This document shows, piece by piece, positions 14,410-50,241 of a DNA stretch of 64,000 bases. Location of the stretch: NCBI GenBank assembly GCA_051003795.1, contig JBPCKZ010000152.1:7520-71519 (forward strand), written 5' to 3'. The stretch is from Bryobacteraceae bacterium. GTDB taxonomy: Bacteria; Acidobacteriota; Terriglobia; Bryobacterales; Bryobacteraceae. Within the stretch, counting starts at the first letter, position 1. Each line of letters opens with the position of its first letter. The position numbers and the translations under genes were made by a program. A model generated the notes under the pieces. That model ran no database searches, had not been told where the DNA came from, and saw nothing but the letters and a program-made list of their open reading frames with translations.

Positions 14410-15984
14410 TTACCGGCGTAGCGCTTCTCGCGCCGCCAAAGACTTCGGCCTGAACTGCAGATACCGCTCGAAAGTCTTTCGAAGATCGTATTCGTCGTGC
14501 TGCTTGGCGTATGCGTCCGCCAACCGGCGGTAGGCTACTTCCATCGACGGATCCAGTTGGATGGCGCGATTCAGACGCTCAATCGCAACCCCGGCCTGCC
14601 CTATTTCCAAAAAAGCCGCCGCAAGGTTTACTTGCGCGGGCGCGGAATCGGGCTCTACCGCCGCGGCGCGCTCAAACTCGCGAAGCGCATCGCGCGGCAG
14701 GTGCTTTCTCATATACGCCACGCCCAGGCCTGTCAGGAATGCAGGATCGCTGGTGAAGGACCCTTGCTCCTCAAGTAAGAGCTGGTATCCCCGTTCTAAA
14801 TACTCGGGAAGACGATCCCGTTCGCCTACCGTGATGTACGCCAACCCTAGATTTCGATTCGCCAGCGGTTTCGGAGGGTCGCGCCAAGCGACCAGCCGCT
14901 CGTGTCCGTTGTCCACGCCCGCGTCCGTCCTTTTCATGATCCGGTGATCCGTGAAAGCGGTGTGCCCGCCGTCCCGGGCGGGTCGTGAAGGCATATGACA
15001 CGCCACGCATTCCCGGGAAGCAGTGGAATGCGATTTGGCGAGTACCTGGCCGTGGCAGGAAAGGCAGCGTTCGCGATAAGAGTCCCTTGACGCTTTGACG
15101 TGAGGGTTGTGACAGGTTCCACACCAGAGCCGTCCGCCGCTCTTCCGCGCGCACATGCTCAGCGCGAGTTGCTCGGCATGGCTTACCACTTTTATAGACG
15201 GGGTGCTTTTAGAGGGAATGGGCGAATCGAAGACATACACGGAGTAATAGTCTTCGAGTTCACGCCCCGGCTCGAAATCGCTTAATTTTCGTCCGGGATT
15301 CGCTATTCTTGCCTCACCCGTAAGATGACATTGCTCGCAAACACTGTCCCGAGCCTTGGCGGGCAGCCGGACCGGATTGATAATGTTGTTTCGCGAAGGA
15401 TCGCGTAAATGGCTTGCGACCGGTCCGTGGCATCGATCGCAAGATATGCCGGGCGTACCGATCGCCGGCTGCTTGTACCGGTTTATGGTTCCGTTGACCG
15501 GGGAAGAGTTTCCCGTATGGCAGAGAAGGCACTCGGGGGTGACAGGCCGTGTAAAGTCGGGCAGAGAATCCCGCTCGTAGCCGGGCGCCATGTCCCATAG
15601 TTCCCGTTTTGTGTAGTAGGAAATGGGCGATTGAAATAGGTAATCGCCAACCTGAATCAAGTAAGCGATCGCGCGGCTTCCCGAACCTATCGAGTAAGCG
15701 ACGGCATATTCCGCGCCGATACCTCGTCTTTGAATACTCTGGCTTACACCCGCGCTGCCTGAATGGATCTGAAAAGCGGTCCCCGATAACGCGTGAGTGA
15801 AACCTCCGGGCGGCTGGCCCGAAGGCAATCCGGATGAACGGGCCATGGGGCTGGCAGCGTATCCATCCACCTCTTTTGGATGACAAGGCGCGCACGGATG
15901 AGCGGCCGGCGCGGGCAGGGCGCACGCCAGATTAAGCGCGCAGAGTAACCCCGCCTGGATCGGTCTATCGATTGCCCAGCTCAC
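14410..15984 (-). CDS. seven-haem c-type cytochrome fused to C-terminal TPR repeats
   Basis: Seven CxxCH motifs (CAPCH, CLLCH, CDRCH, CEQCH, CGTCH, CLSCH, CVACH). The C-terminal ~150 aa are TPR-like. Signal peptide. Confidence 0.8.
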   Translation of the reverse strand: MSWAIDRPIQAGLLCALNLACALPAPAAHPCAPCHPKEVDGYAASPMARSSGLPSGQPPGGFTHALSGTAFQIHSGSAGVSQSIQRRGIGAEYAVAYSIGSGSRAIAYLIQVGDYLFQSPISYYTKRELWDMAPGYERDSLPDFTRPVTPECLLCHTGNSSPVNGTINRYKQPAIGTPGISCDRCHGPVASHLRDPSRNNIINPVRLPAKARDSVCEQCHLTGEARIANPGRKLSDFEPGRELEDYYSVYVFDSPIPSKSTPSIKVVSHAEQLALSMCARKSGGRLWCGTCHNPHVKASRDSYRERCLSCHGQVLAKSHSTASRECVACHMPSRPARDGGHTAFTDHRIMKRTDAGVDNGHERLVAWRDPPKPLANRNLGLAYITVGERDRLPEYLERGYQLLLEEQGSFTSDPAFLTGLGVAYMRKHLPRDALREFERAAAVEPDSAPAQVNLAAAFLEIGQAGVAIERLNRAIQLDPSMEVAYRRLADAYAKQHDEYDLRKTFERYLQFRPKSLAAREALRR

Positions 15985-17596
15985 GTAGAGCCTTTCGCGC
16001 GGTTATGTTCTCCGGCATGAACAGCAGATACTGCTGGGACGTGCGGCGAACTCCCCCGATATCGCGAGCTTCGAAATATATTTCACCGAGGGAGCGATAG
16101 GCTGCTTCCAATGAAGGATCGAGTTGGATGGCGCGCTCCAGTTCCTGAATCGCCTTATCCTTCGTGCCGGATTCTTTATATGCGCTGCCCAGGTTTGCAT
16201 GGGAGCCGGCGCGGTCGGGCTCCAGCCGCACGACATATTCAAAGAGGTCGATCGCTTCCGCGGGCGTCCCCGCGCGCATCAGAACCATGCCGAGTTTGGT
16301 CAGCAAAACGGCATCTTCCGGGAAGGATTTCATGGCTGAGACCGCCTGACGCGCGCCCTGCTCCAGTTGTTCGGCCGATTTTTCGCGTTGTCCGATTTCG
16401 ATATTTGCAAGACCCAGGTTTCGCGTTGCTAACGCGCCGGCAGGTTCGCGCCAAGCCACCAGGTTCCGAACAGGTTCCTGCGGCTCCGAAATCCCGGACG
16501 CGTAAACGCGTGCAATCCGATGGTCGGTAAAAACCGTGTGAGCTCCGTCTTTCGCTTTTCGCTTGGGCATGTGGCACGACACGCAGTCGATCGCCGGTTT
16601 GGAATGTGTGTGAAGTATTCGCGCGCCATGACAGCCGAGGCAACGGTCCCGGTAAAAGCTTACTGGATTTTCGGGCTTCTGGTGGGGATTGTGACATGTG
16701 CCGCACCATAGCTCTCCGGCGCTGCTTCTCGAACAGGCGCTCAAAGCGAGTTGTTCGGCATGACCGATTACTTTGATCGAAGAGTCCGGCGGCGGCTTGC
16801 CCCCATTGTCCCGATTGTCCCGAACATAAACGGAGAAGACATCTTCAAGTTCCTGTCCCGGTTGGAAGTCGCCAAACTGCCGTCCCGGATTGAGAATGCG
16901 TACTTCCCCGCTAAGATGACATTGTTCGCAGACGCTGTCGCGGGCGCGTGGCGAAAGCCTTCGCGCGTTGACTATGTTGCGGCGGCTGGGTTGTTTCAGG
17001 TGCGCGGAACCGGCGCCGTGGCATCGATCGCACGAAATGGCCTCTTCGGAGAATGCCGGAACTTCATATCGATTCAGGGTGGTGGGGACGGGCCGGGGCC
17101 GGCCGGCGTGGCATTCCAGGCATTCCACGGTAACCGGGCGTGAAAAGTCCGGCGCCGGATCGGTTTCATAACCGGGAGCCATGTCCCAGATACCGCGCTT
17201 TGAGTAAAACGATATGGGGGCTTGAAATAAGTAACTGGAGATATCGACTAAATACCCATGGGCGTGATTGCCGGAGCCGATGATATATTTGACCGGATAA
17301 CTGGCGGTAAGTCCCTCCCGCGTCATGCCGATCCTGATCTTCCCGTCGCCGGGGCCGACAACGAATTTCGTGCCGGATAGATCGTGCGTAAAGCTACCCG
17401 GTTGGCATGAGGACGCGCGCGACAGCGAATGCGCCATCGGCGATTTATCGAAACCCGCGACTTCCTTCGCGTGACAGGGAAGACACGGGCTGGCCGCCAT
17501 ACCTAAACCGGATGAACTGGTGATAAAAATAACACTTGCGGCGTACCGTTTCCACCCGTGACGAGACGCACGAAACTCTTGCGCTTCAATAATCAT
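15965..17596 (-). CDS. seven-haem c-type cytochrome fused to C-terminal TPR repeats (paralogue of the downstream gene)
   Basis: Seven CxxCH motifs in the same order (CLPCH, CLECH, CDRCH, CEQCH, CGTCH, CLGCH, CVSCH). Collinear similarity to 14410-15984. 20-nt overlap with it. Confidence 0.8.
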   Translation of the reverse strand: MIIEAQEFRASRHGWKRYAASVIFITSSSGLGMAASPCLPCHAKEVAGFDKSPMAHSLSRASSCQPGSFTHDLSGTKFVVGPGDGKIRIGMTREGLTASYPVKYIIGSGNHAHGYLVDISSYLFQAPISFYSKRGIWDMAPGYETDPAPDFSRPVTVECLECHAGRPRPVPTTLNRYEVPAFSEEAISCDRCHGAGSAHLKQPSRRNIVNARRLSPRARDSVCEQCHLSGEVRILNPGRQFGDFQPGQELEDVFSVYVRDNRDNGGKPPPDSSIKVIGHAEQLALSACSRSSAGELWCGTCHNPHQKPENPVSFYRDRCLGCHGARILHTHSKPAIDCVSCHMPKRKAKDGAHTVFTDHRIARVYASGISEPQEPVRNLVAWREPAGALATRNLGLANIEIGQREKSAEQLEQGARQAVSAMKSFPEDAVLLTKLGMVLMRAGTPAEAIDLFEYVVRLEPDRAGSHANLGSAYKESGTKDKAIQELERAIQLDPSLEAAYRSLGEIYFEARDIGGVRRTSQQYLLFMPENITARKALRELGNR

Positions 17597-40182: not shown

Positions 40183-40572
40183 TTGCTTCGCATCGCCTAC
40201 AGCATAGAATTCCTGATCGCGATCATCGCCATCTTCACATTTTGGAGCGAGGTCGGCGGCCAAGGGCATCTCGATCTGATGGCGTGGTATTGGAAGCTTG
40301 GTTTTTCGCTTGCCGCCGCCGCGGTTTGCCTCAAACTCACCGCCGCGACGCTCGAGAAGCAGAGCGTCTGGTCGAAATCCGCGCTCCGCTGGCTGCTGGC
40401 GCTTGTGCTCTTAGCCGCCGGAGCCGGCGCCGTGACTTATTTTTATCATCTCAACGAACCGGCGGATACCGACGATAGCGAGGCAATCTATTCGTCGAGT
40501 TGGCGCGCCATCGAGTCGCAAGCGACCTCGATACATGGCGATTTTGTGGTAGTGGTTCATTTTGAAATTTGA
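40183..40572 (+). CDS. hypothetical membrane protein whose last ~8 codons come from an inserted element
   Basis: Three or four hydrophobic helices. TTG start. The 8-bp duplication (40540-40547) and left terminal repeat (40548-40564) lie inside its 3' end. Confidence 0.4.
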   Translation: MLRIAYSIEFLIAIIAIFTFWSEVGGQGHLDLMAWYWKLGFSLAAAAVCLKLTAATLEKQSVWSKSALRWLLALVLLAAGAGAVTYFYHLNEPADTDDSEAIYSSSWRAIESQATSIHGDFVVVVHFEI

Positions 40573-40604
40573 CACTTAAGTACCGAATTGGTAACTAAAT
40601 ACAA

Positions 40605-40698
40605 CGCCGTTAGTGAGGAATAATCCACCGCAGATCCCCGCCGGGCCACTTCGGGCGGGCGTGTCATCTGGACTGAATCGGCGAACAGAAGCCGACTT
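40605..40698 (+). repeat. 94-nt subterminal block (L-type end), copy 1
   Basis: About 91% identical by eye to the reverse complement of 49709-49801 (cgccgttag...ccccgccgg.ccac.tcggg...catctggactgaatcggcgaacagaagccgactt). Confidence 0.85.
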
Positions 40699-41029
40699 AT
40701 CGTTCCTAATCCGACCGACGTGGTCGAACGCTGCTTCTGGATTGTGACTGTCATAATCACGGAATGCCGGTTACACGACCAACTGCACCGCGTGATGCTC
40801 AGCAAACCCACACACCTATAGCACGCGGACCTCTCCCTCGGCGTTGTTGTTGGTGCGGAACGATGAAAATCGGAGAAGCAGTACTCTGTTGTATCTATAC
40901 TGATATTTGATCCCTGAGGCAAAGATTTTAGAGGTGGAAGCGTCTCGACACGAAATGCAAATCATCGATATCGACAAAGAGCGCAGGAAATGTTAGCTTT
41001 CGCTGCTGTCCGGAGGATCGCTACTGCGG

Positions 41030-41596
41030 TCAACGCCTGAGGACCTTAAGCGGCAGACTGAGTCCCTTCGCCTTGCAGGCAATCTCCCCTTCCTTAACCG
41101 CGAAATCGTACGGCTTGCCTGCAGCGATGGCATCGTAGAAGCCCTCTGCAAACTGAATTGCGGCGACGTCATCGATAGCCGCTTCCATCCCAATAGTCAA
41201 ATCCGCCAGTGGTTCGGTGCGGGCTGCCAGTGAACTGCAAGCGTTGAGAATCACGCATTTTATGGATGGGTGGTGGGCGACGAGCGAGGATATGGCGTCG
41301 ATCGGTGAAACGGCGATTTTGCCGGACGCGTCTTCAAACAGCAGTGAATCGAAGTCGCCGTGCCCGGAGAAATGAAGTATTTCGTAACCGTCATCCAGCA
41401 GGGCGTGCCGAACATCATCAACGGTTGTGGCGTGTCGCACTTCAAGAGAGACGCAGTCTCGCGCCTTCCCGCGCTGAAGGGCGTGGCGGATAGCGCGATC
41501 CTCTTGTGTAAGCCGCAAGTTGCCGGTTCCTTCAGGGTTCGCGAAAACGACGATGACTCGTATTTTAGGAATCGCCGCGCGGGCGACATTCTCTCT
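41030..41596 (-). CDS. CHAT/caspase-like protease domain (C-terminal part of a frameshifted gene)
   Basis: ILHFSGHG (His) and VILNACSS (Cys) dyad. The frame is open upstream of the annotated TTG back to TGA 41597-41599 and reads PKIRVIVVFANPEGTGNLRLTQEDRAIRHAL, the usual CHAT N-terminal strand, with no start codon of its own. Confidence 0.7.
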   Translation of the reverse strand, partial: RENVARAAIPKIRVIVVFANPEGTGNLRLTQEDRAIRHALQRGKARDCVSLEVRHATTVDDVRHALLDDGYEILHFSGHGDFDSLLFEDASGKIAVSPIDAISSLVAHHPSIKCVILNACSSLAARTEPLADLTIGMEAAIDDVAAIQFAEGFYDAIAAGKPYDFAVKEGEIACKAKGLSLPLKVLRR

Positions 41597-42729
41597 TCAA
41601 GGCTTTGGCCGGACGTGCCCGCCTCGATTTTCAAATCTTCTGGAAGCCGCTCGACGATTCTGCGGACGGATAACACCAGTTCTTCCAATTGTCCCTGCGG
41701 GCGCTTACTTCCCGCGTAAGTCGCCCCGGCGCCAATCTGAATGGCGGCGCTGCGAAGGCTCTGGGCGGTCGTAGCGTCGGTGCGACCTACTACGTCGGCG
41801 ATTCGGAGACATAGCAGGATGAGGGCTTTATTCGTGTCGCCACGGTCAAACGGAAAACGATCAATGAGACCGGAATATCCACCAAGTCTCTCGAGGACTT
41901 GGGAAGATATTTCCAGCGACTCCCGGCTGAAGGTTTCGTGGTCCATCCGAAAGAGTTGCTCTACCCCCTCGATGTCGAGTTCCTTCGCCATGCGGCCGAC
42001 CGTCGCCTCAGGAACCAACGGGCATACGCAAAGTACATGCCCACACTGTACGCACAAGCCGGGATAACGCTTAATCAGTTCGTCCTCAAGCGAAAAAGGC
42101 GTGTCGGTTTGCTGCTGCGCCATAAGTTCATGCTCGTTGGCAAGGCCCATCAGATACGAGAAAACATCGGACGCCTCACCGGCAAAGTATTTGGGATATC
42201 GATCAAAGACGCGGACTGCTTCGGCCAGCTCGCCAAGTTCTTCGAATAATCCTGTGACGCTGCGCCCGGAGCGTGCGTCGTCAATCGAACGCGGGTAGAT
42301 ATCGGAAAACATTCGCTGCCACCCGTTCAGTGATTTGGGCCTCAGCAAAACGTTCGATTCCTTCGCCCGTTTGAGTGCCGCGTGATCGACCGTCTTGCTC
42401 GTCCCACGGGTGGTTTTGCATGGCAGGTCCTGATGGGGCTTCAGCCTGCAGTACGGACATACGTAGGGGTACTTCCGAAATACGAGTTCCTCAACGCTCG
42501 AAACGCGAAACTTGGCCATCAGGGGGAAAAACCATCCGAGGGCTTTGCAAAGAGCATCCAAAAAACTGAACCCTTCGCGTTTCTTATTCCGGGAGTGCAC
42601 GGTAAGCATTCCGCATACTTCTACGAAGTGCGTGAACGTTGCTGCCGCAGGCCGGTGAGCGTTCTGCTCACTGTACGTGTGGGCGATCATCTTATAAAAA
42701 TCGTCGAGCCTCAGTGGCGTGTCGCTCAT
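41589..42729 (-). CDS. tandem MazG-like nucleotide-pyrophosphohydrolase-type domains (N-terminal part of the frameshifted gene)
   Basis: LFEELGELAEAVR ... EASDVFSYLMGLANEH ... KRYPGLCVQCGHVLCVCP is a MazG-like core with a terminal Cys cluster. A degenerate first copy precedes it (FVEVCGML ... RKYPYVCPYCRLKPHQDLPC). Start at ATG 42729 (MSDTPLRL). The ORF tail beyond ~41590 is out of frame over the CHAT part. Confidence 0.65.
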
Positions 42730-42887
42730 GATGTGTCGCTCAATGATCGTTCGCTTGATGTATTGGACCACACGCCGGAATGACACCCACCCGGCCGACG
42801 GGGTCTAGACCCTCAGATTAGCGATCTGGTCGGGAGGTCTTTGACCTGACCGTGGGGGATCTCGCCGGGTTAGTAATGATAAACGCG

Positions 42888-43021
42888 CTTCCGTTCGCCT
42901 AACGGCCAGGATCGTCGGCAATCCGGAAGTGGGCCGCATTCCCGAATTAACACATAGGTCCTCCCTTGTCGCCCAGCGTTTACCGAACATCTCGCTCGAC
43001 GATTCAAACTGACCCACTACC
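42888..43021 (-). repeat. 134-nt terminal block (A-type end: TIR plus conserved leader), copy 1
   Basis: About 90% identical by eye to 47555-47688 in inverted orientation. Lies directly upstream of, and in the same direction as, the cargo gene. Confidence 0.9.
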
Positions 43022-43049
43022 GATTTTGTAGTCCTGAAACCTAAATGCA

Positions 43050-44783
43050 TTAACTCGCCAACTCGAGCTCAATCCTTTTCTTATCCGCGTCCAGCCTCGC
43101 GATCCGGAAACTCCTGATCTGCCCGGCCCTCGCCGGCTCTTTCTTCACCGGGGCCGACAAGTCGCTCTGCCCCTGCTTCCACTTATTCGCCAGCATCGAA
43201 CTCAACGACGAAACGTCGGCCCGCGCGCCGGCGGCCTGTTTCTCTTCCCGATTCTCGCCGGCAATGTTGCACGAAGCCCGCACGCCTTCGCCCAACTCCA
43301 CTGTTGCCTTCCCGCGTGAAACGTCCGACACCCGCCCCGTCACCATGTCGCCTTCTTTATGCTCGGCGATGTACTCGTCGACCGACGTCGGCTGTAGTTG
43401 CTTCAATCCCAGCCGTAGCCGCCGCTTCGCGCGATCCATCTCCAGCACAACCGCCCGGACCTGCTGTCCCGCCTTCAGCACGTCCTGCGGATGCTCGACC
43501 CGCTTCTCCGCGCTGATGTCGCCGACGTGGATCATCCCCTCGACGTTTTCGCCCAATTGCACGAACGCCCCGAACTTCGTGAGACTCGTGACCGGCCCTT
43601 CGACAATCGTGCCCGGCTGATATTGTTTCTCCGCTTCCGCCCACGGATCTCCGAGCGTCTGCTTCAACCCTAAAGCAATCCGGTGTTCCGCCGGATTCAC
43701 GCCCAACACAACCACTTCCACCGCGTCGCCGGGCTTCAGCACGTCGCTCGGCTTCCGCACTTTTTTCGACCACGACATTTCGGACAGATGAACCAGCCCA
43801 TCGAGCCCCGGCTCGAGTTCGACGAACGCACCGAAATCCGCGACCCGCGAAACCGTTCCCTTCACGCGGTCGCCCACGTGGAATTTTTCCGCTACCTGGG
43901 TCCACGGGTCCGGCTGAAGCTGTTTCATTCCGAGCGCAACCCGCCGCTTGTTCGGATCGATCTTCAGAATCCGGACGTCCACCTGCTGCCCGACGGTCAA
44001 AACATCGGCGGGCTTCCCGATGCGCCCCCACGAAATCTCGCCGACATGCAGCATCCCATCGATGCCGCCGATATCGACGAACGCGCCGTAATCCATGAGG
44101 CTCCGCACCGTGCCCCGCACCTCCATGCCTTCGCGCAAATCGGTGAAGCGCTGCTCGCGGGAATGCTTCTCTTCTTCTTCCAGGACCACGCGCCGGTCGA
44201 CCACCACGTCTTCATCGGCCACATCGAGCTTGATGATCCGGCAGCTGATTTCCTGCCCCACCAGCGCCTGCAGCTCGGCCGCGTCTTTCGTGCCGCTGCG
44301 CGAACCGGGCATGAACGCGCGCACGCCCACATCCACCGTGACGCCGCCCTTGATCAATCCCGCGACCACTCCGGCGATGGCCCGCTTTTCCGCGAACGCC
44401 TGTTCCAACGAAGACCAGTCCTTCGGCCGCGCCACTTTAATCAAAGAAAGCTGATAATAACCCTCCGGATCGCGCCCCGTGATCGCCGCCTGCATCTTGT
44501 CGCCCTGCTTGAGGGTCAAATTTCCCGCCGGATCGCGGAAGCCTTCAACCGGCATGATGCCCTCGGTCTTCAGCCCGACATCGAGGAAAACCGACTCGCC
44601 CGAAATCGCGACCACGGTTGCTTCCCGCCCTTCCGTCCCGCCCCCCGGGGCGTTCGTGCGCGTGCCGTGCGACCGCTCGTATTGGCTCAGGATGTCGCCG
44701 AAGGAGGTATCGGCTTCAGACGGAGTTGGGGCTTCGAGGTCGCGCGTTTCCGAGTCGCGACCCAGGGAGTTGTGATTGGCCAT
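43050..44783 (-). CDS. rpsA: 30S ribosomal protein S1
   Basis: Six S1 repeats (e.g. GTVRSLMDYGAFVDIG, GTVSRVADFGAFVEL, GPVTSLTKFGAFVQLG). Start at ATG 44783 (MANHNSLG). The 97-codon upstream ORF extension is R/H-rich and implausible. Confidence 0.93.
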   Translation of the reverse strand: MANHNSLGRDSETRDLEAPTPSEADTSFGDILSQYERSHGTRTNAPGGGTEGREATVVAISGESVFLDVGLKTEGIMPVEGFRDPAGNLTLKQGDKMQAAITGRDPEGYYQLSLIKVARPKDWSSLEQAFAEKRAIAGVVAGLIKGGVTVDVGVRAFMPGSRSGTKDAAELQALVGQEISCRIIKLDVADEDVVVDRRVVLEEEEKHSREQRFTDLREGMEVRGTVRSLMDYGAFVDIGGIDGMLHVGEISWGRIGKPADVLTVGQQVDVRILKIDPNKRRVALGMKQLQPDPWTQVAEKFHVGDRVKGTVSRVADFGAFVELEPGLDGLVHLSEMSWSKKVRKPSDVLKPGDAVEVVVLGVNPAEHRIALGLKQTLGDPWAEAEKQYQPGTIVEGPVTSLTKFGAFVQLGENVEGMIHVGDISAEKRVEHPQDVLKAGQQVRAVVLEMDRAKRRLRLGLKQLQPTSVDEYIAEHKEGDMVTGRVSDVSRGKATVELGEGVRASCNIAGENREEKQAAGARADVSSLSSMLANKWKQGQSDLSAPVKKEPARAGQIRSFRIARLDADKKRIELELAS

Positions 44784-44819
44784 GGGGATTACATTTTTAT
44801 TTTTGCATAAGATGTCTCC

Positions 44820-46079
44820 GTGGATGCTCCGACCAACGCTTCGACCAACGCTTCGAGGAACGCGCTGAAGCCGCAGGACGCCGTGCTGGTGTTGTTGTTC
44901 ACGGCGATGGCGGCGCTGAACCCGACCCACGATCCGTGGGAGATCGGCATGATCGTGACGTTGGGCCTGCTGCAAATCGCCGAACCGAAAATCGCCGTCC
45001 TCGATTCGACGCACGGCCGGATTGTTTGGATACTGCTGAAGCTCGGCGTGGGTTACCTGTTGATCGGCCTCACGCACGGCCTGAATAGCGAATATTATCT
45101 GATCCTGTTGCTGCCCGTGATCTCGGCGGCCACCTATCTTGGGGTGTTCGGAACGCTTCTGTTCACGGTGCTCGCGTGCGGAGCGTACTTATCTTTCATC
45201 TTCTTCGTCGATTGGACGGAGTTTCATATCGATGCCGATCAATTGCGCGTCTTGACCTTGCGGCTGCTTTTCCTCGCCATAGCCGCGAACCTGGTCAATA
45301 CTCTCGCCGAGGCTCTGCGCGTTCAATACTCGAAGTACAAAAGCGTGGCGGAACAACTGGTCGAAGCCAATCGTCATCTCGGCGAAGCCGAAGCGGCGAT
45401 GCGCCGCTCGGAGCGCCTGGCCGCGCTCGGCCAACTCTCGGCGGGCCTCGCGCATGAGCTGCGCAATCCGCTCGGAACCATTCGCGCATCCGCTGAAATG
45501 CTCGCGCGCGGAGTTTCGCAAGAAAACGAGGTGGCCCGCGAAGTAGCGGGGTTCATCTCATCCGAAGTCGACCGCACCAACTCGCTGGTCACGCGCTTTC
45601 TCGATTTCGCGCGCCCGCTCCATCTCCGGCTCGCTCCGGCCGATCCCGCCCAGGCCATCGACCGCGCCGTCGAATTGATCGAGCGCGATCCCGCGAAGCA
45701 TCCCGTCACGATCTATCGCAACTACTCGCCGGACCTTCGTCCGTTTCCGATGGATGCCGAATTCATGGAGCGCGTTTTCTACAATCTGCTCTTGAACGCG
45801 GTTCAGGCGACCGCGCCGGGCGGCGCCGTGACCGTCAAGACCAGGGTAGTGAATCAAACGGCGGAAATCGCGGTGATCGATCGCGGCTCGGGTATCGCCC
45901 CCGCGATCAAGGAAACCATTTTCAATCCGTTCGTCACGACCAAACCCGAGGGTGTCGGCCTGGGGCTCGCCATCGTTTCGAAGATCGTCGATGAGCACGG
46001 CGGTAACATAACAGTCGAAAGCGAACCCGGCAAGGGCAGCGTGTTCCGCGTCCATCTCCCCATCCCGGAAACCGAATGA
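44820..46079 (+). CDS. membrane sensor histidine kinase
   Basis: Multi-TM N-terminus. H-box SAGLAHELRNPLGTI. N box LLLNAVQA. DRGSGI and GVGLGLAI G boxes. Confidence 0.85.
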   Translation: MDAPTNASTNASRNALKPQDAVLVLLFTAMAALNPTHDPWEIGMIVTLGLLQIAEPKIAVLDSTHGRIVWILLKLGVGYLLIGLTHGLNSEYYLILLLPVISAATYLGVFGTLLFTVLACGAYLSFIFFVDWTEFHIDADQLRVLTLRLLFLAIAANLVNTLAEALRVQYSKYKSVAEQLVEANRHLGEAEAAMRRSERLAALGQLSAGLAHELRNPLGTIRASAEMLARGVSQENEVAREVAGFISSEVDRTNSLVTRFLDFARPLHLRLAPADPAQAIDRAVELIERDPAKHPVTIYRNYSPDLRPFPMDAEFMERVFYNLLLNAVQATAPGGAVTVKTRVVNQTAEIAVIDRGSGIAPAIKETIFNPFVTTKPEGVGLGLAIVSKIVDEHGGNITVESEPGKGSVFRVHLPIPETE

Positions 46080-47419
46080 AATCGCGCATTCTGATCGTCG
46101 AGGACGAGGAAAAACTTTGCCGCGTGATCGAGCTGCAACTCGCGTCGGAAGGTTACGAAGTTGAGAAAGCCCGCTCGGCCGAAGAAGCTCTTTCCATGAT
46201 GGATCGCGCCGATCTCATCGTCACCGATCTGCGGCTTCCCAAGATGGACGGGCTGGAGCTGCTGGCGCTCGCCCGGCGCCAGAACGCGCGCGCTCCGGTG
46301 ATCGTGATGACCGCTTATGGCACGGTGGAGACTGCGGTGGAGGCCATGAAAACGGGCGCCGTCGATTTTCTGCTGAAGCCCTTTTCGCTCGATCACTTGA
46401 GCGCCGTGGTGCGTAAAGCGCTGGAGGTTCGCAATCTTCGCGATGAGAACCGCCAGTTGCGCGAAGAGCTTGGCCAGCGATACACCTTCGACAACATCGT
46501 CGGTCGGAGCGCCCCGATGCAGGAGATTTTTGCGACCGTGATGCGCGTGGCTCCCACGCGCGCGACGGTGCTGCTGGCGGGCGAGAGCGGCGTCGGCAAA
46601 GATATGATCGCGCGCGCGATCCATTTCCATTCGCCGCGCCGCGACCGCCCGCTGGTGAAGATCAATTGCACCGCGCTGCCGGAAAATCTGATGGAGAGCG
46701 AGCTGTTCGGCTATGAAAAAGGCGCGTTCACGGGCGCTAACGTCTCGAAACCCGGAAAGTTCGAGCAAGCCGACACCGGCACCGTGTTTCTCGACGAGAT
46801 CGGCGACGTGCCCGCGTCCGTTCAGGTGAAATTATTGCGCGTGCTGCAGGAACGCGAGTTGGAACGGCTGGGAAGCAACAAGACCAAGCACATCGATGTC
46901 CGCGTGATCGCGGCGACCAATCAGGATTTGCGCGCCGCCCTCGAGCAGGGCACGTTTCGCGAGGATCTTTATTACCGCCTGAATGTCGTTCCCATCGAGA
47001 TTCCGCCGTTGCGCGAGCGCAAGCAGGATATTCCGTTTCTGGCCGGGCATTTCGTGCAGAAACTGGCCGCCGATTCGGGCAGCCGCGTGGAGAAAATCAC
47101 GCAGCCCGCGATCGACAAGCTGCTGACATATCACTGGCCCGGTAACGTCCGCGAGCTCGAAAATGTTATCGAGCGCAGCCTGGTGATGTGTACCGGGCCG
47201 GAGCTGGACGCGGCGGATATCAAGCTCGACATCCCGCGGGCACGGCAAGGTTCGGGCGATCTATCGCTGCCGGAGGGGATGAGCCTCGATCAATACGAGC
47301 AGGAACTGATTCGCCAGGCTCTCAAGAAAGCGGATGGAAACAAGAGCCAGGCCGCGCGCCTGCTCGGCCTGACGCGAAACGCCCTTCGTTACCGCCTGAC
47401 CCAAATGGGCATTGAATAA
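46076..47419 (+). CDS. sigma-54-dependent Fis-family response regulator (NtrC class)
   Basis: REC domain (ILIVEDEE ... DLRLPKMDG). AAA+ module with GESGVGKD and GAFTGA. C-terminal HTH QAARLLGLTRNALRYRL. 4-nt overlap with the kinase gene. Confidence 0.92.
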   Translation: MKSRILIVEDEEKLCRVIELQLASEGYEVEKARSAEEALSMMDRADLIVTDLRLPKMDGLELLALARRQNARAPVIVMTAYGTVETAVEAMKTGAVDFLLKPFSLDHLSAVVRKALEVRNLRDENRQLREELGQRYTFDNIVGRSAPMQEIFATVMRVAPTRATVLLAGESGVGKDMIARAIHFHSPRRDRPLVKINCTALPENLMESELFGYEKGAFTGANVSKPGKFEQADTGTVFLDEIGDVPASVQVKLLRVLQERELERLGSNKTKHIDVRVIAATNQDLRAALEQGTFREDLYYRLNVVPIEIPPLRERKQDIPFLAGHFVQKLAADSGSRVEKITQPAIDKLLTYHWPGNVRELENVIERSLVMCTGPELDAADIKLDIPRARQGSGDLSLPEGMSLDQYEQELIRQALKKADGNKSQAARLLGLTRNALRYRLTQMGIE

Positions 47420-47452
47420 CATTTGTTTGTGGCGCGGACACTCGTGTCTGCC

Positions 47453-47483
47453 GTGTCCACACTCGTGTGGACACAAGTTTTTT
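47453..47483 (+). terminator. rho-independent terminator of the response-regulator gene
   Basis: gtgtccaca-ctcg-tgtggacac (9-bp stem, 4-nt loop) followed by aagtttttt, 34 nt after the stop codon. Confidence 0.75.
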
Positions 47484-47554
47484 GCCACACGAGCCCGCGC
47501 CACAATTCCGGCTCAAGTTCAATTCTGAACGTCCGGTTTTTTGTATCACAATTC

Positions 47555-47688
47555 GGTAGTGGTCAGTTTGAATCGCCAAGCGAGATGTTCGGCAAACGCT
47601 GCGCGACAAGGGATGATCCTATGTGCTAATTCCGGAATGCGGCCACTTCCGGATTGCTGACGAATCCTGGCCATTAGGCGAACGGAAG
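47555..47688 (+). repeat. 134-nt terminal block (A-type end), copy 2
   Basis: See 42888-43021. Contains a perfect hairpin TCCGGAA-tgcggccac-TTCCGGA (47631-47653). Confidence 0.9.
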
Positions 47689-47954
47689 GGCCGATGCCCC
47701 ACTTGTAGCGTAACTTCGTGTAACCCACGGACCGGCTCCAAACAATAACCGTTCTCGTCATCTTCGCTGGACGCGATAGTAGCCCATGCGGACACGCCCA
47801 GATCGAGTGGCTCTAATGTCTCGCTGAGATTATTTATGGTTTTCGAGAGTTCCCAGGCGGCAGAGTGCAGTTCAGGGGAAATAGACTTGAGTTCTTTGAA
47901 TGATGTGGCGATCCGCTCTGTCGGAGGAACCTGAGGGACCTTCGGTTTAGGCAT
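47619..47954 (-). CDS. hypothetical small protein (divergent from the HEPN gene)
   Basis: ATG 47954 is preceded by AGGAG at a good spacing. 111 codons. The 3' third runs into the conserved terminal block, so the true end is uncertain. Confidence 0.35.
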   Translation of the reverse strand: MPKPKVPQVPPTERIATSFKELKSISPELHSAAWELSKTINNLSETLEPLDLGVSAWATIASSEDDENGYCLEPVRGLHEVTLQVGHRPFRSPNGQDSSAIRKWPHSGIST

Positions 47955-48136
47955 AGGAGCCAGCTCCTTAGATAAATTGCGCCTTTAAAGGCGGTACTGC
48001 GCAAGGCAAGAGCCGCGGATCAAACCGCCGGTATAAATGCCGCTCCGACCTTTTGGCAACGGTGTAACACGTTCCGGCCCTGCGGGCGCGTTCGCTCGGG
48101 TATGCTCATTGCCATGTTCGCAGCGACCTTGCTACG

Positions 48137-48850
48137 GTGAAAGTCATGGTTCCGAGCGGCCCACCGCCCATGACCGAGGCGGAATACTGGCGCGATTACG
48201 ACATCATCCGCAATGACGTGAATGCGGCCATGGTCAGCTGCTACACACATCGCGCCATCAACGACATATCCGTGTCAGATCAGAAAATCTACCAGAGACT
48301 CAATCGGCATCCGGACTTCTGGCGGGTTACGTCATTCAGCCTACAGAACGGTCTGTTCATAGTGCTGGCGCGCATTTTGGATTCGGACCCCAAACTGCAT
48401 TCGATCTATCAGGTCTTGAACGCGACAACCGCGCATCCGGAGTTCTTCAATAAGGCTGCACTGCGAGCACGAAAACTCAGCATTCCGGGCATCCCGCCGA
48501 ATCCACCGTGGCTGGACGAGTATGTTCAGAACGCCTGGGAACCAACCGTGCAGGACCTGCGCGCACTGAAGAAGGCCCTCGCTCCGCACAAGACGAAGTT
48601 CGACGACATCTACAAGCCGGTCCGCAACCAGATCGCCCATATCATTTTCAAAGACAAGCAGTCCATCTCGTCCCTTTACGGCAGAACGCTAAGAACAGAC
48701 ATTGATGAGATCCTCCGTTTTCTTCATAGTCTTGTGCGCGCGATCTGGGAGATGGCCCACAATGCCGCGCAACCGGATCTCAGGGGCGACAATTACGGAC
48801 GCCGATCGGGTGGCGGAAATCACGAAGGAGACACACGAGCTACTCCTTGA
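48137..48850 (+). CDS. AbiU2-like HEPN-domain protein (abortive-infection type)
   Basis: RNQIAH (R-x4-H HEPN motif) within YKPVRNQIAHIIF. Helical N-terminal region with LFIVLARILDSDPKLHSIY, as in Abi-type HEPN families. The 3' end may be frameshifted (see findings). Confidence 0.5.
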   Translation: MKVMVPSGPPPMTEAEYWRDYDIIRNDVNAAMVSCYTHRAINDISVSDQKIYQRLNRHPDFWRVTSFSLQNGLFIVLARILDSDPKLHSIYQVLNATTAHPEFFNKAALRARKLSIPGIPPNPPWLDEYVQNAWEPTVQDLRALKKALAPHKTKFDDIYKPVRNQIAHIIFKDKQSISSLYGRTLRTDIDEILRFLHSLVRAIWEMAHNAAQPDLRGDNYGRRSGGGNHEGDTRATP

Positions 48851-49021
48851 ACTTCCTACGCGCTCTTCGCGTAAAGGCGTGCGATCATAGCAGAGACTTT
48901 TGAAGCTTCAATGTTGCGTTGCTTCGAAATTCCGCTGAAGCGTGGTGACGAAGTGCTCCCCCGCAGCGATGCGGCATCATGACTAGGCAGGGAGATCATG
49001 ACCCTGCTGGAGGCAAACGCC

Positions 49022-49400
49022 ATGCCCGTCGTCTACCGTGTCGGCGGCGGGATACCCCTGATGATTAAACTGCCATATGCCGACGACAACTCTACTTGGC
49101 TCAGGGGCGATAATCCTTCAGAAACCCGACTGGAACAAGCAATATAAATGCTGGGAGACGCCGAACACTTAGTTTTTAGTGAAGTCGTCGGCGAATACTG
49201 AACCGGTTTGGCCGCGTCTACGTCATTCAGCCTTACTAAGTTCTGGAAAAATGCGCTCCGGCATGGAGTGCGAATGCTCCTGTATGGGGGAAAACCATGG
49301 TTCTTAGGTGACGGGAAAGTGGTATGTGATATCAGAAATCTGCGCATTGCAATGGCACAAGCGTGAGCTTTCCTGTCGCCTTTTTAAAAGCCTCTTCCCC
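49022..49400 (+). pseudogene. decayed Cys-rich gene (one frameshift, two in-frame TAG codons)
   Basis: MPVVYRVGGGIPLMIKLPYADDNSTWLRGDNPS continues only after a +1 shift as KPDWNKQYKCWETPNT*...MECECSCMGENHGS*VTGKWYVISE... No intact ORF spans it. Confidence 0.35.
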
Positions 49401-49708
49401 TCGGAGTCAACCGGTACCCCATCCCAGTTCCGCCGAGGACATAAACCGCGAATTATATTCCGCGCGCCGACCGCGCCCCCGACACCTTTAAGAGACTCGC
49501 CCGCGACGGCAGCGCTTGCCAGTTTTCCTCCGGCCGTATCTCGCCAGCGCTTCCGCCTGACGGGCCATGAAGGTCAGGCGGGACCAGATTGGTCGGAACT
49601 ACGGGCCCGATGCAAAGCCCCACGCTGGTTTATACATTCCGATTACTCTGAGACACCTCCACCGCTTTTCCGCCCTCTGCGGTCAGCGCAAGGAAGATGA
49701 GTCCCCGG

Positions 49709-49801
49709 AAGTCGGCTTCTGTTCGCCGATTCAGTCCAGATGACGCGCCAACCCGATGTGGCCGGCGGGGATCTGCGGCGCATTATTCCTCTCTAACGGC
49801 G
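49709..49801 (-). repeat. 93-nt subterminal block (L-type end), copy 2
   Basis: Reverse complement matches 40605-40698 with about 8 differences. Confidence 0.85.
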
Positions 49802-50241
49802 AAGCATAGATCTGGTGATGCCTGCCGCTTGACTCTACGAAACGCACTAGGCGGGAGTTGAGCGCGGGGCGTCTCGATAACGCCAAGGATCGACTGAGAC
49901 GCCTGCTTTGTTTACATCGCATGCGCGACGAGAACCGGCCCTTCTGATAGACTCCTACTTTCATGGCGCGCCTCGCTCACGAGCCTTGACCTGTCGCACA
50001 CACGCACCTAGTCTAGGCCGGAAGAGCTTTCTATCCGGCGGAACCCACTCTCCGTCCGGGTTCAAGTTCGAATAAGCGGCTCGAATATACTTGAGTAGGC
50101 TCAGCGACATGGGAATCCTCTGTTTTCTCCGCTCCCATATTACCGCGCGGCGACGTCGAAAGCCGTTCTCGCCGCCGCCGGACATCAACACCCTACACGC
50201 TTTCCGGAAGCGAACCGTCTAATATTCCGAAAGGAGAACCC

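Follow-up and report, generated by a model that had tools for sequence, protein, structure and literature searches.

A 64,000-nucleotide (nt) stretch of DNA from a Bryobacteraceae bacterium (contig JBPCKZ010000152.1, positions 7,520 to 71,519 of the forward strand; hereafter the window) carries on its minus strand, at 41030-42729, a gene in which two tandem MazG-like units, a helical middle domain and a minimal CHAT (caspase-like) protease domain are divided between two reading frames. On balance, we infer that this locus is probably an inactivated copy of a single-gene conflict protein of about 565 amino acids (aa), of an anti-phage, abortive-infection type. That the fused MazG-like/CHAT family to which it belongs is real can be regarded as nearly certain. 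All sequence statements of the original prediction, which had described the locus as tandem MazG-like domains fused to a CHAT protease and split by a frameshift, were verified at their coordinates, and the gene is laid out as follows.

41030-42729, minus strand: whole disrupted gene (two MazG-like units, helical middle domain, CHAT), 565 aa after removal of one AG
42394-42717, minus strand: repeat 1, about residues 5-112, a degenerate MazG-like unit (HFVEVCGML... ALCKALGW) with only E37 of the acidic set kept
42418-42459, minus strand: Cys/His cluster 1, CPYCx4Hx4C (C91, C94, H99, C104), a putative zinc knuckle reading CPYC..H.D..C
41995-42342, minus strand: repeat 2, about residues 130-245, a MazG-like unit with intact metal-binding signature, from the family profile
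42160-42243, minus strand: acidic signature EELGELAEA...GEASDVF (E163, E164, E167, E170, E185, D188), from alignments A1 and A4
42022-42054, minus strand: Cys cluster 2, CxxCx4CxC (C226, C229, C234, C236), a putative zinc knuckle, its four Cys invariant in the wide family
41593-41967, minus strand: helical middle domain, residues 255 to about 379-385, common to CHAT-fused, PNP-fused and membrane-protein-partnered variants
41589-41598, minus strand: frameshift site GAAGAGAGAA, with one extra AG/GA dinucleotide relative to intact homologues (LEE-N/S-VAR), from DNA alignments and a repair test
41597-41599, minus strand: TGA closing the CHAT frame on its upstream side, from the sequence
41260-41592, minus strand: out-of-frame tail, about 110 codons on the upstream open reading frame (ORF), RMSPARRFLKYE...TTHP and stop, overlapping the CHAT frame
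41033-41596, minus strand: frame of the minimal CHAT (caspase-like) domain, a -1 frame lacking a start codon before its first strand

Homologues and domain structure

With the repaired protein as query, 457 homologues were retrieved, and the best 120 of these are nearly all single proteins of 544-607 aa that match at 97-100% query coverage and 47-79% identity, the exceptions being truncated or frameshifted copies. Similarly, tblastn recovered the gene as a single full-length segment in one frame in 17 of 80 genome loci (L009-L024 and L027), which span Acidobacteriota, Alpha- and Deltaproteobacteria, Nitrospira and Actinomycetota. The upstream half and the CHAT half of the window gene align to the intact 565-aa homologue P0001 at 82% and 73% identity, respectively. 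A fused single ORF is therefore the rule in this family, rather than two genes with an independent start for the CHAT part, and the two frames of the window represent one gene split by a -1/+2 frameshift in a purine run, as had been proposed. Databases hold the family under automatic names only, and in the literature searched we found no description of a MazG or pyrophosphohydrolase fusion to a CHAT, caspase or deaminase domain, which agrees with the earlier statement that no nucleotide-pyrophosphohydrolase/CHAT fusion had been described. Phage and plasmid collections yielded no full-length relative, only matches to the CHAT module alone; this minimal CHAT is about 40% identical to the CHAT modules of plasmid-borne TIR domain-, NACHT domain- or CHAT domain-containing proteins from cyanobacteria and Agrobacterium.

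The assignment of the CHAT domain is solid, and the match is far stronger than chance would give. The CHAT frame matches Pfam CHAT (PF12770) with an E value of 2.5e-11 and 44 bits against a cut-off of 24, over model positions 72-264 of 289, and a family profile finds the SAVED-CHAT structure 8TL0 at E 3.9e-20. Structure models comprised homologue P0001 (80% identical) at full length and the window's own N-terminal module, both from AlphaFold 2 (AF2). In the former the CHAT region reaches a predicted local distance difference test score (pLDDT) of about 90, and the Foldseek results of this full-length model are dominated by CHAT and caspase matches, with 8TL0 at E 1e-9 and CED-3, MALT1 and caspases at about 1e-3. 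The catalytic His lies in HFSGHG (41357-41374) and the catalytic Cys in LNACSS (41231-41248), and both residues, H456 and C497, are invariant in 56 sequences. Read from its sequence, then, this is a minimal caspase-like protease domain with an intact His/Cys dyad and a predicted peptidase activity.

The upstream frame begins at ATG 42729 (MSDTPLRLDD...) and encodes the tandem MazG-like module and the helical middle domain through 42729-41593, its helical stretch ending ...GQSLEE at 41593. In repeat 1, HFVEVCGML (42604-42630) is followed by ALCKALGW and then by RKYPYVCPYCRLKPHQDLPCK, while repeat 2 reads LFEELGELAEA ... GEASDVFSYLMG ... KRYPGLCVQCGHVLCVCP, with EELGELAEA at 42217-42243 and GEASDVF at 42160-42180. 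Profile-profile comparison by hhalign aligned the two repeats over 91 columns (P 9e-5). The acidic residues of repeat 2 are invariant or nearly so in alignments A1 and A4, even though mean identity in the wide family is 20%, and C91, C94 and C104 of cluster 1 are invariant across the wide family. Moreover, the wide-family profile A4 matched the PDB entries 1VMG (E 4.8e-9), 2Q73 (6.1e-5) and 2Q5Z (1.1e-4), in each case on repeat 2 and with the EExGE...E..D residues aligned; a profile of close homologues alone found MazG at only E 0.01, so that the wider family profile was needed. One relative, P0204, exceeds the Pfam MazG cut-off (24.9 against 22 bits) and L045, L081, P0178 and P0208 fall just below it, and many family members carry the JGI annotation non-canonical NTP pyrophosphatase, where NTP denotes nucleoside triphosphate. 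The AF2 model of the N-terminal module is all-helical (pLDDT 85, predicted template-modelling score, pTM, 0.86). Profile searches, the internal-repeat test and the family-wide invariant residues thus bear out the description of tandem MazG-like units, the first degenerate and the second intact, with a Cys cluster after each. To judge from these alignments, the N-terminal part is an internal duplication of a predicted MazG-type, all-alpha NTP-pyrophosphohydrolase unit in which only the second copy keeps the EExxE...ExxD site. The middle domain carries an invariant loop, GGY..L..FPFDRGDxN (41830-41856), and has no Pfam match, no PDB match by profile and no recognisable relatives.

The EExGE...E..D motif of repeat 2 is what the module shares with the MazG superfamily, represented by SSO3215 (1VMG), 2Q73, YpjD (2GTA) and Bacillus MazG (5IE9). 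The tandem arrangement, with one presumably less active unit, also recalls E. coli MazG, which has two tandem domains. In contrast to MazG, however, each unit here has a Cys4/Cys3His knuckle at its C-terminus, the acidic residues of repeat 1 are lost except E37, the window protein lies below any Pfam MazG score, and the module is fused to a protease, unlike any described MazG.

A frameshift at the middle-domain/CHAT linker

The upstream frame gives way to the CHAT frame by a -1 (+2) shift inside GAAGAGAGAA. In DNA alignments with L001 and L004 the window has 2 extra nt and no other indel, reading GAAGAGAGAATGTC where the genes for P0001 and P0007 read GAAGAGAG--TGTC or GAGGCGAG--CGTC; the intact form of the site is GAAGAGAAT and the form with the extra AG is GAAGAGAGAAT. 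When one AG was deleted, a 565-aa ORF with a single terminal stop resulted, the same length as in the five closest homologues. The original prediction that a single-base change in this tract would join the frames was therefore right about the joined product of about 565 aa and wrong about the size of the lesion, which is a 2-nt insertion relative to intact relatives. The simplest history that the alignments suggest would be the gain of one AG in a GAAGAG-AAT tract, with LEENVAR as the ancestral reading, at the linker between the middle domain and CHAT.

Because the AG was added at this linker, translation runs on into about 110 out-of-frame codons. The CHAT frame reads RENVARAAIPKIRVIVVFANPEG...HFSGHG...LNACSS from 41596 to its stop at 41030-41032. 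It had been described as opening right after TGA 41597-41599, with its first strand upstream of any start codon, and the sequence confirms both: its earliest ATG, GTG or TTG is the TTG at 41518, downstream of the first strand, IRVIVVF (41543-41563). With no start codon ahead of this strand and the +2 shift severing the frame from the upstream one, the window copy is unable to yield the CHAT arm or an expressed, active CHAT peptidase. At most, the window allele might produce a 379-aa NTPase with a 110-aa junk tail, and its effector arm would be dead.

The same allele was found in other assemblies. A 6786-nt Logan contig from SRR24198227 matches window 40669-47454 with 0 mismatches, the extra AG included, and a JGI contig (3300009400, Ga0116854_1023163) is identical to the window across the gene and has the same out-of-frame tail (JGI protein P0278), its only 3 mismatches all lying within a flanking repeat, at a switch to second-copy sequence. 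The shift is therefore a real mutation rather than a mis-assembly or a programmed frameshift, and we are confident that it is genuine. In the protein collection, the source metagenome-assembled genome (MAG; NCBI, Bryobacteraceae bacterium) is represented by accessions for neighbour genes (MGI8990570 and MGI8990571) and by none for the broken ORF.

A sequencing or assembly artefact, in which the gene of the organism would really be intact, is very improbable. Such an origin might be suspected of a MAG, particularly as several further MAG copies of the family are likewise frame-broken, and the three assemblies with the frameshift may stem from overlapping read sets and so have reads in common, which counts against our reading of the lesion. 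However, a +2 indel in (AG)3 is untypical of short-read errors, the other window genes checked are intact, and the gene is identical, extra AG included, in the NCBI MAG window, the Logan contig and the JGI contig, so that the suggestion of a mis-assembled locus made in the original prediction can hardly be upheld.

We give equally little credence to a break that is itself functional, whether as a programmed -1 ribosomal frameshift that joins the frames or as a gene now arranged as a two-gene operon (NTPase plus CHAT). In an independent lineage, L088, a 4-nt insertion at the same linker is accompanied by a CHAT ORF with its own ATG 20 nt past the stop, L094 (of the PNP type) and L040 are also broken at or near this junction, and the N-terminal plus middle part can be a separate gene, as in L095. 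Yet the window has no ATG, GTG or TTG between the TGA and the first CHAT strand, its upstream frame continues through 110 junk codons, nearly all homologues are uninterrupted, so that the frameshift is not conserved, and the junction cases came partly from seeking proteins of about 380 aa, an ascertainment bias. Programmed -1 frameshifting in particular was rejected, since no X XXY YYZ slippery heptamer occurs at the site (41589-41610) and the shift is a lineage-specific 2-nt insertion in a family of uninterrupted homologues.

Frame breaks near the linker between the middle domain and the effector were seen in L088 (2074-2125, the 4-nt insertion falling within 12 nt of the window site), L094 (4071-4076) and L040 (about 11180), and elsewhere in the gene in L033, L034 and L037. 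Because breaks also occur elsewhere, and because some of the junction cases were found by the ~380-aa search, a clustering of breaks at the linker is not established. Copies disrupted by frameshifts or insertions are indeed frequent in the family (L026, L033, L034, L036, L037, L040, L088 and L094). The window copy is a recently inactivated pseudogene, and its local frameshift a case of ordinary pseudogenisation.

Genomic setting and flanking blocks

All-against-all BLAST of the ORFs at 27 loci revealed no neighbour family common to more than 4 of them, and the gene is therefore a stand-alone unit. Several loci are defence or mobile islands. For example, one carries an IS3 transposase, an M78 peptidase and type I restriction-modification (RM) genes, another a resolvase with Dcm, Eco47II and Vsr, and others a DUF433/DUF5615 pair, an integrase with AbiEi and PIN, or a methylase with NERD and EcoEI_R_C. 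Among 149 neighbours from 19 further genomes, strong PADLOC matches included GajB, PD-T4-6, AriA, DRT and mad3. The distribution of the gene is patchy, with 45-57% identity across phyla, and at the nucleotide level the similarity to relatives does not extend past the ORF borders. In the window, G+C falls from about 0.61 to 0.52-0.57 across 40200-43200. Two related Acidobacteriota MAGs (L092 and L093, 88% nt identity across rpsA-ntrB-ntrC) align to the window only at 43050-47419, from the rpsA stop to the ntrC stop, with different genes beyond both ends; because the alignment is confined to this interval, these strains lack the MazG-CHAT gene at that position.

At two loci, L001 (6437-10110, an acidobacterial-type contig) and L021 (6299-9938, Sphingomonas cynarae), the gene is adjoined, on opposite sides, by a three-gene cassette encoding an M78-peptidase-like protein, an AAA_18/adenylosuccinate-synthetase-like protein and a DUF7002 protein. 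It could represent a further defence system related to nucleotides, or a partner that accompanies the gene now and then.

In the window itself, the gene is flanked by two conserved, sharp-ended non-coding blocks that recur in inverted orientation around a second unit.

42885-43026, minus strand: conserved upstream block, 142 nt, with an inverted copy at 47550-47691 (90% identity over 144 nt, sharp ends)
40605-40698, minus strand: conserved downstream block, 94 nt, with an inverted copy at 49709-49801 (91.5% identity over 94 nt)
47550-49801, plus strand: second unit, delimited by copies of both blocks and with the HEPN AbiU2 ORF 48137-48850 among its cargo

The second unit with its AbiU2 gene lies 4.5 kb away, and the two units bracket rpsA-ntrB-ntrC as inverted repeats. 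Its AbiU2 ORF, on the plus strand, matches Pfam HEPN_AbiU2 (PF18734) with E 1e-8 and 35.3 bits against a cut-off of 26.8 and has the R-x4-H motif as RNQIAH; about 860 nt without a clear gene separate the AbiU2 stop from the 3′ block. At their inner ends the blocks form a pair of inverted repeats (..GGCGAACGGAAGC / GCTTCTGTTCGCC..), and a motif of about 10 nt, CGNTAGTGRG, is common to the outer ends. This block-flanked placement and the twin unit with AbiU2 support the label of cargo that the gene had been given. The blocks resemble a carrier of defence genes, cassette or MIC-like, or else a hot spot at which such genes recombine, and their placement hints at a small cassette-like carrier of these genes in Bryobacteraceae.

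The blocks have no Rfam match and no promoter-like site, no copy was present in the fetched loci, and two patterns gave no exact match in JGI metagenomes; the window contains no tRNA and the MazG-CHAT unit no significant repeats. As single strands, neither the 94-nt nor the 142-nt block folds better than shuffled sequences do (z -0.9 to +0.05). An integron attC cassette or a structured RNA was considered as an identity for the blocks and is not supported, given the lack of a stable hairpin and of an Rfam match (an integrase gene was not searched for systematically).

Several further features of this region were observed. In both 142-nt copies (42940-42960 and 47615-47635), a Shine-Dalgarno-like AAGGGAGGA/AAGGGATGA precedes a two-codon mini-ORF, ATG TGT/TGC TAA. 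The JGI contig L091 (3300009400) follows the window through the gene but, at its positions 1344-1451, goes over within the 94-nt block to second-copy sequence and the flank of that copy (49709-49815), owing either to a chimeric assembly at the repeat or to a recombinant arrangement. A 129-aa hydrophobic ORF without a Pfam match (40183-40572, plus strand) is convergent with the MazG-CHAT gene and ends 33 nt from the 94-nt block. Finally, two adjacent paralogous genes at 14410-17596 (minus strand), unrelated to the MazG-CHAT gene, each encode multihaem cytochrome c motifs together with TPR repeats at the C-terminus.

Effector exchange and proposed function

An exhaustive search with the 254-aa module returned 428 representative clusters among 1.84 billion, and these extend well beyond the module + middle + CHAT architecture. 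In one variant a PNP_UDP_1 nucleosidase takes the place of CHAT from about residue 386-410 onwards; the CHAT and PNP types cease to be homologous at residues 386-410, in the linker where the window gene is broken, and the PNP part matches the PADLOC 'Effector, PN-superfamily' model PDLC00759 at E 3.6e-15. In another, at L095 3001-4749, an N-terminal plus middle protein of 396 aa ends at the linker, and a gene for a predicted multi-pass membrane protein of 171 aa follows 43 nt on, with a strong ribosome-binding site; this locus adjoins an integrase and a zeta-toxin-like gene. Neighbour joining on the N-terminal plus middle part puts the L095 variant inside the CHAT clade, a position that is indicative only, as the tree has no bootstrap support. 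Further architectures are dCMP/cytidine deaminase (dCMP_cyt_deam_1) + module, adenylate/guanylate cyclase (Guanylate_cyc) + module, module + GGDEF, and module + coiled coil (about 385 aa). Also among the relatives is P0220 (L096 2235-4427), a 730-aa protein with a CARF-like region N-terminal to the MazG-like module (PADLOC CARF6, E 8e-7), whose gene overlaps an ORC/CDC6-like gene and adjoins a dCTP deaminase (DCD) gene; the CARF call comes from this one representative, lacks Pfam or PDB support, and is not accompanied by CRISPR genes on the 5.4-kb contig.

The lack of a conserved partner, the variable and partly defence-like neighbourhoods and an N-terminal module with swapped partner domains together suggest a sensor-effector conflict protein. 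Since the N-terminal and middle parts stay constant while the C-terminus swaps between protease, nucleosidase and membrane protein, the C-terminal position looks as an effector slot usually does. The abortive-infection role suggested in the original prediction is plausible in view of this swapping and of the gene's context. On this comparative evidence the family fairly likely serves in conflict or defence, and MazG-CHAT would then unite sensor and effector of a conflict system in one chain, with an undescribed module in control, encoded by a widespread, unstudied and probably mobile single gene.

We can suggest how such a protein would work. The two MazG-like units may form an intramolecular pseudo-dimer with one active NTP/metal site, as in MazG dimers, and the duplicated module and middle domain would together be the constant, nucleotide-binding or nucleotide-hydrolysing sensor or regulator. 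The C-terminal slot would hold an exchangeable effector, namely CHAT, a PNP-family nucleosidase or, in one lineage, the separately encoded membrane protein. By analogy with SAVED-CHAT, binding or turnover of a nucleotide may lead to oligomerisation and switch the caspase-like protease on, and the active protease would cleave cellular or phage proteins so that growth stops. This logic of sensor to CHAT is plausible while falling somewhat short of probable. More tentatively still, and with the chances rather against it, the module and middle domain could constitute a new family of single-protein immune sensors that read a nucleotide (for example a phage-modified or accumulating deoxynucleoside triphosphate, dNTP) at a pseudo-dimeric NTP-pyrophosphohydrolase site and activate interchangeable effectors.

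The closest solved relative of the CHAT domain is SAVED-CHAT of type III-B CRISPR (8TL0), at about 25-29% identity by Foldseek, which likewise places a compact caspase-like domain C-terminal to a nucleotide-binding domain. There, ligand-induced filament formation turns the protease on (bioRxiv 10.1101/2023.06.23.546230). The putative sensor here is different, being a duplicated MazG-like four-helix unit with Cys knuckles and a helical middle domain rather than SAVED, and at the 27 loci compared no CRISPR or cyclase partner gene accompanies the MazG-CHAT gene; no more than about 60 residues of this CHAT are covered by the PADLOC SAVED_CHAT model, with E 0.013 to 6e-4. The same domain repertoire in a variable position is known from the NTP-dependent conflict systems of multicellular bacteria, with their exchangeable caspase-like, PNPase, GGDEF, cyclase and TIR effector domains (Kaur, Burroughs, Iyer and Aravind 2020, PMC7159879). 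In contrast to those systems, the present family lacks a STAND, vWA-MoxR or GTPase core and is not organised as a multi-gene operon, its constant part being the MazG-like module; MazG has 0 occurrences in that paper (PMC7159879).

Several observations weigh against this interpretation. Many neighbours are housekeeping genes (RecA, Trp synthase, SRP54, ABC transporters). The N-terminal part has no PADLOC or DefenseFinder-type model, with 0 matches in a PADLOC-DB v2 scan, in which the CHAT part gave only a weak partial SAVED_CHAT or BovA match. The window's 379-aa N-terminal part alone has no Pfam, NCBIfam or PADLOC match, and for this reason the MazG call depends on the family profile. Foldseek with the N-terminal module was not significant: its best E value was 0.76, and YpjD, MazG, PRA-PH and dimeric dUTPases appeared at local probabilities of 0.2-0.6 (MazG/YpjD at 0.4-0.6), none with E below 0.7. 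The arrangement of domains relative to each other is uncertain in the full-length model (pTM 0.50). That the catalytic acidic residues are fully conserved is at least as compatible with an enzyme-effector that depletes nucleotides as with a sensor, and the CARF-like sensor that precedes the module in one relative suggests that the module can itself be the output.

These last points lead to the foremost alternative, namely that the MazG-like module is itself the effector, hydrolysing (d)NTPs and thereby starving phage replication, with a fused PNP nucleosidase or deaminase completing the degradation, CHAT acting as a proteolytic switch or second effector, and the middle domain or some other input serving as sensor. 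Enzymes such as dCTP deaminase and dGTPase are known to defend by nucleotide depletion. The likeness to such enzymes and to predicted ones is that of a putative NTP hydrolase in a defence setting, and the deaminase or nucleosidase fused to relatives of the module could complete nucleotide destruction; unlike MazG-CHAT, however, none of them comes with a protease. Despite a mean identity of 20%, the EExxE...ExxD residues hardly vary, and the fusion partners are mostly nucleotide enzymes (dCMP_cyt_deam_1, PNP_UDP_1, GGDEF, Guanylate_cyc). P0220 would provide an example of a putative sensor N-terminal to the module, though its CARF call has the limits given above. MazG is listed by DefensePredictor among predicted, experimentally unvalidated defence domains (PMC13092281), and a MazG-like replacement, likewise unvalidated, is mentioned for PUA-Cal-HAD (bioRxiv 10.64898/2026.01.15.699771). 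Against an effector role for the module stands the pattern in the close family, where it is the C-terminal position that swaps; we regard this alternative as unlikely, if deserving of attention.

It is distinctly improbable that the family consists instead of housekeeping or stress enzymes, that is, of a MazG-type nucleotide-pool sanitiser or an alarmone regulator whose regulatory domain is proteolytic. House-cleaning is the classical role of MazG proteins, many copies of the gene sit amid ordinary metabolic genes, and PADLOC gave no matches. Such a role accords poorly, however, with the patchy distribution and 45-57% identity across phyla, with nucleotide similarity that stops at the ORF borders, with the absence of the gene from strains 88% identical in the flanking genes, with the frequent disruption of copies, with its recurrence beside RM, abortive-infection, toxin-antitoxin, insertion-sequence and integrase genes, and with the swapping of effector domains.

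If the module and middle domain are indeed immune sensors, the family would represent a nucleotide-gated bacterial caspase without a SAVED, CARF or STAND component, and its effectors would be a protease, a PNP nucleosidase and a membrane protein, with GGDEF, cyclase and deaminase domains in more distant relatives. The family is testable in cultured carriers, namely Sphingomonas cynarae JCM 17498 (L021) and Sphingomonas sp. OK281. Should intact members protect against phage, MazG-CHAT would be a compact one-gene system in which an NTPase fold of the house-cleaning type has been reused as a control or co-effector module for a protease. The exchange of protease, nucleosidase and membrane protein on one scaffold would then be a natural effector-swap series, and the known ways in which bacteria couple nucleotide chemistry to proteolytic cell-fate decisions would be extended.

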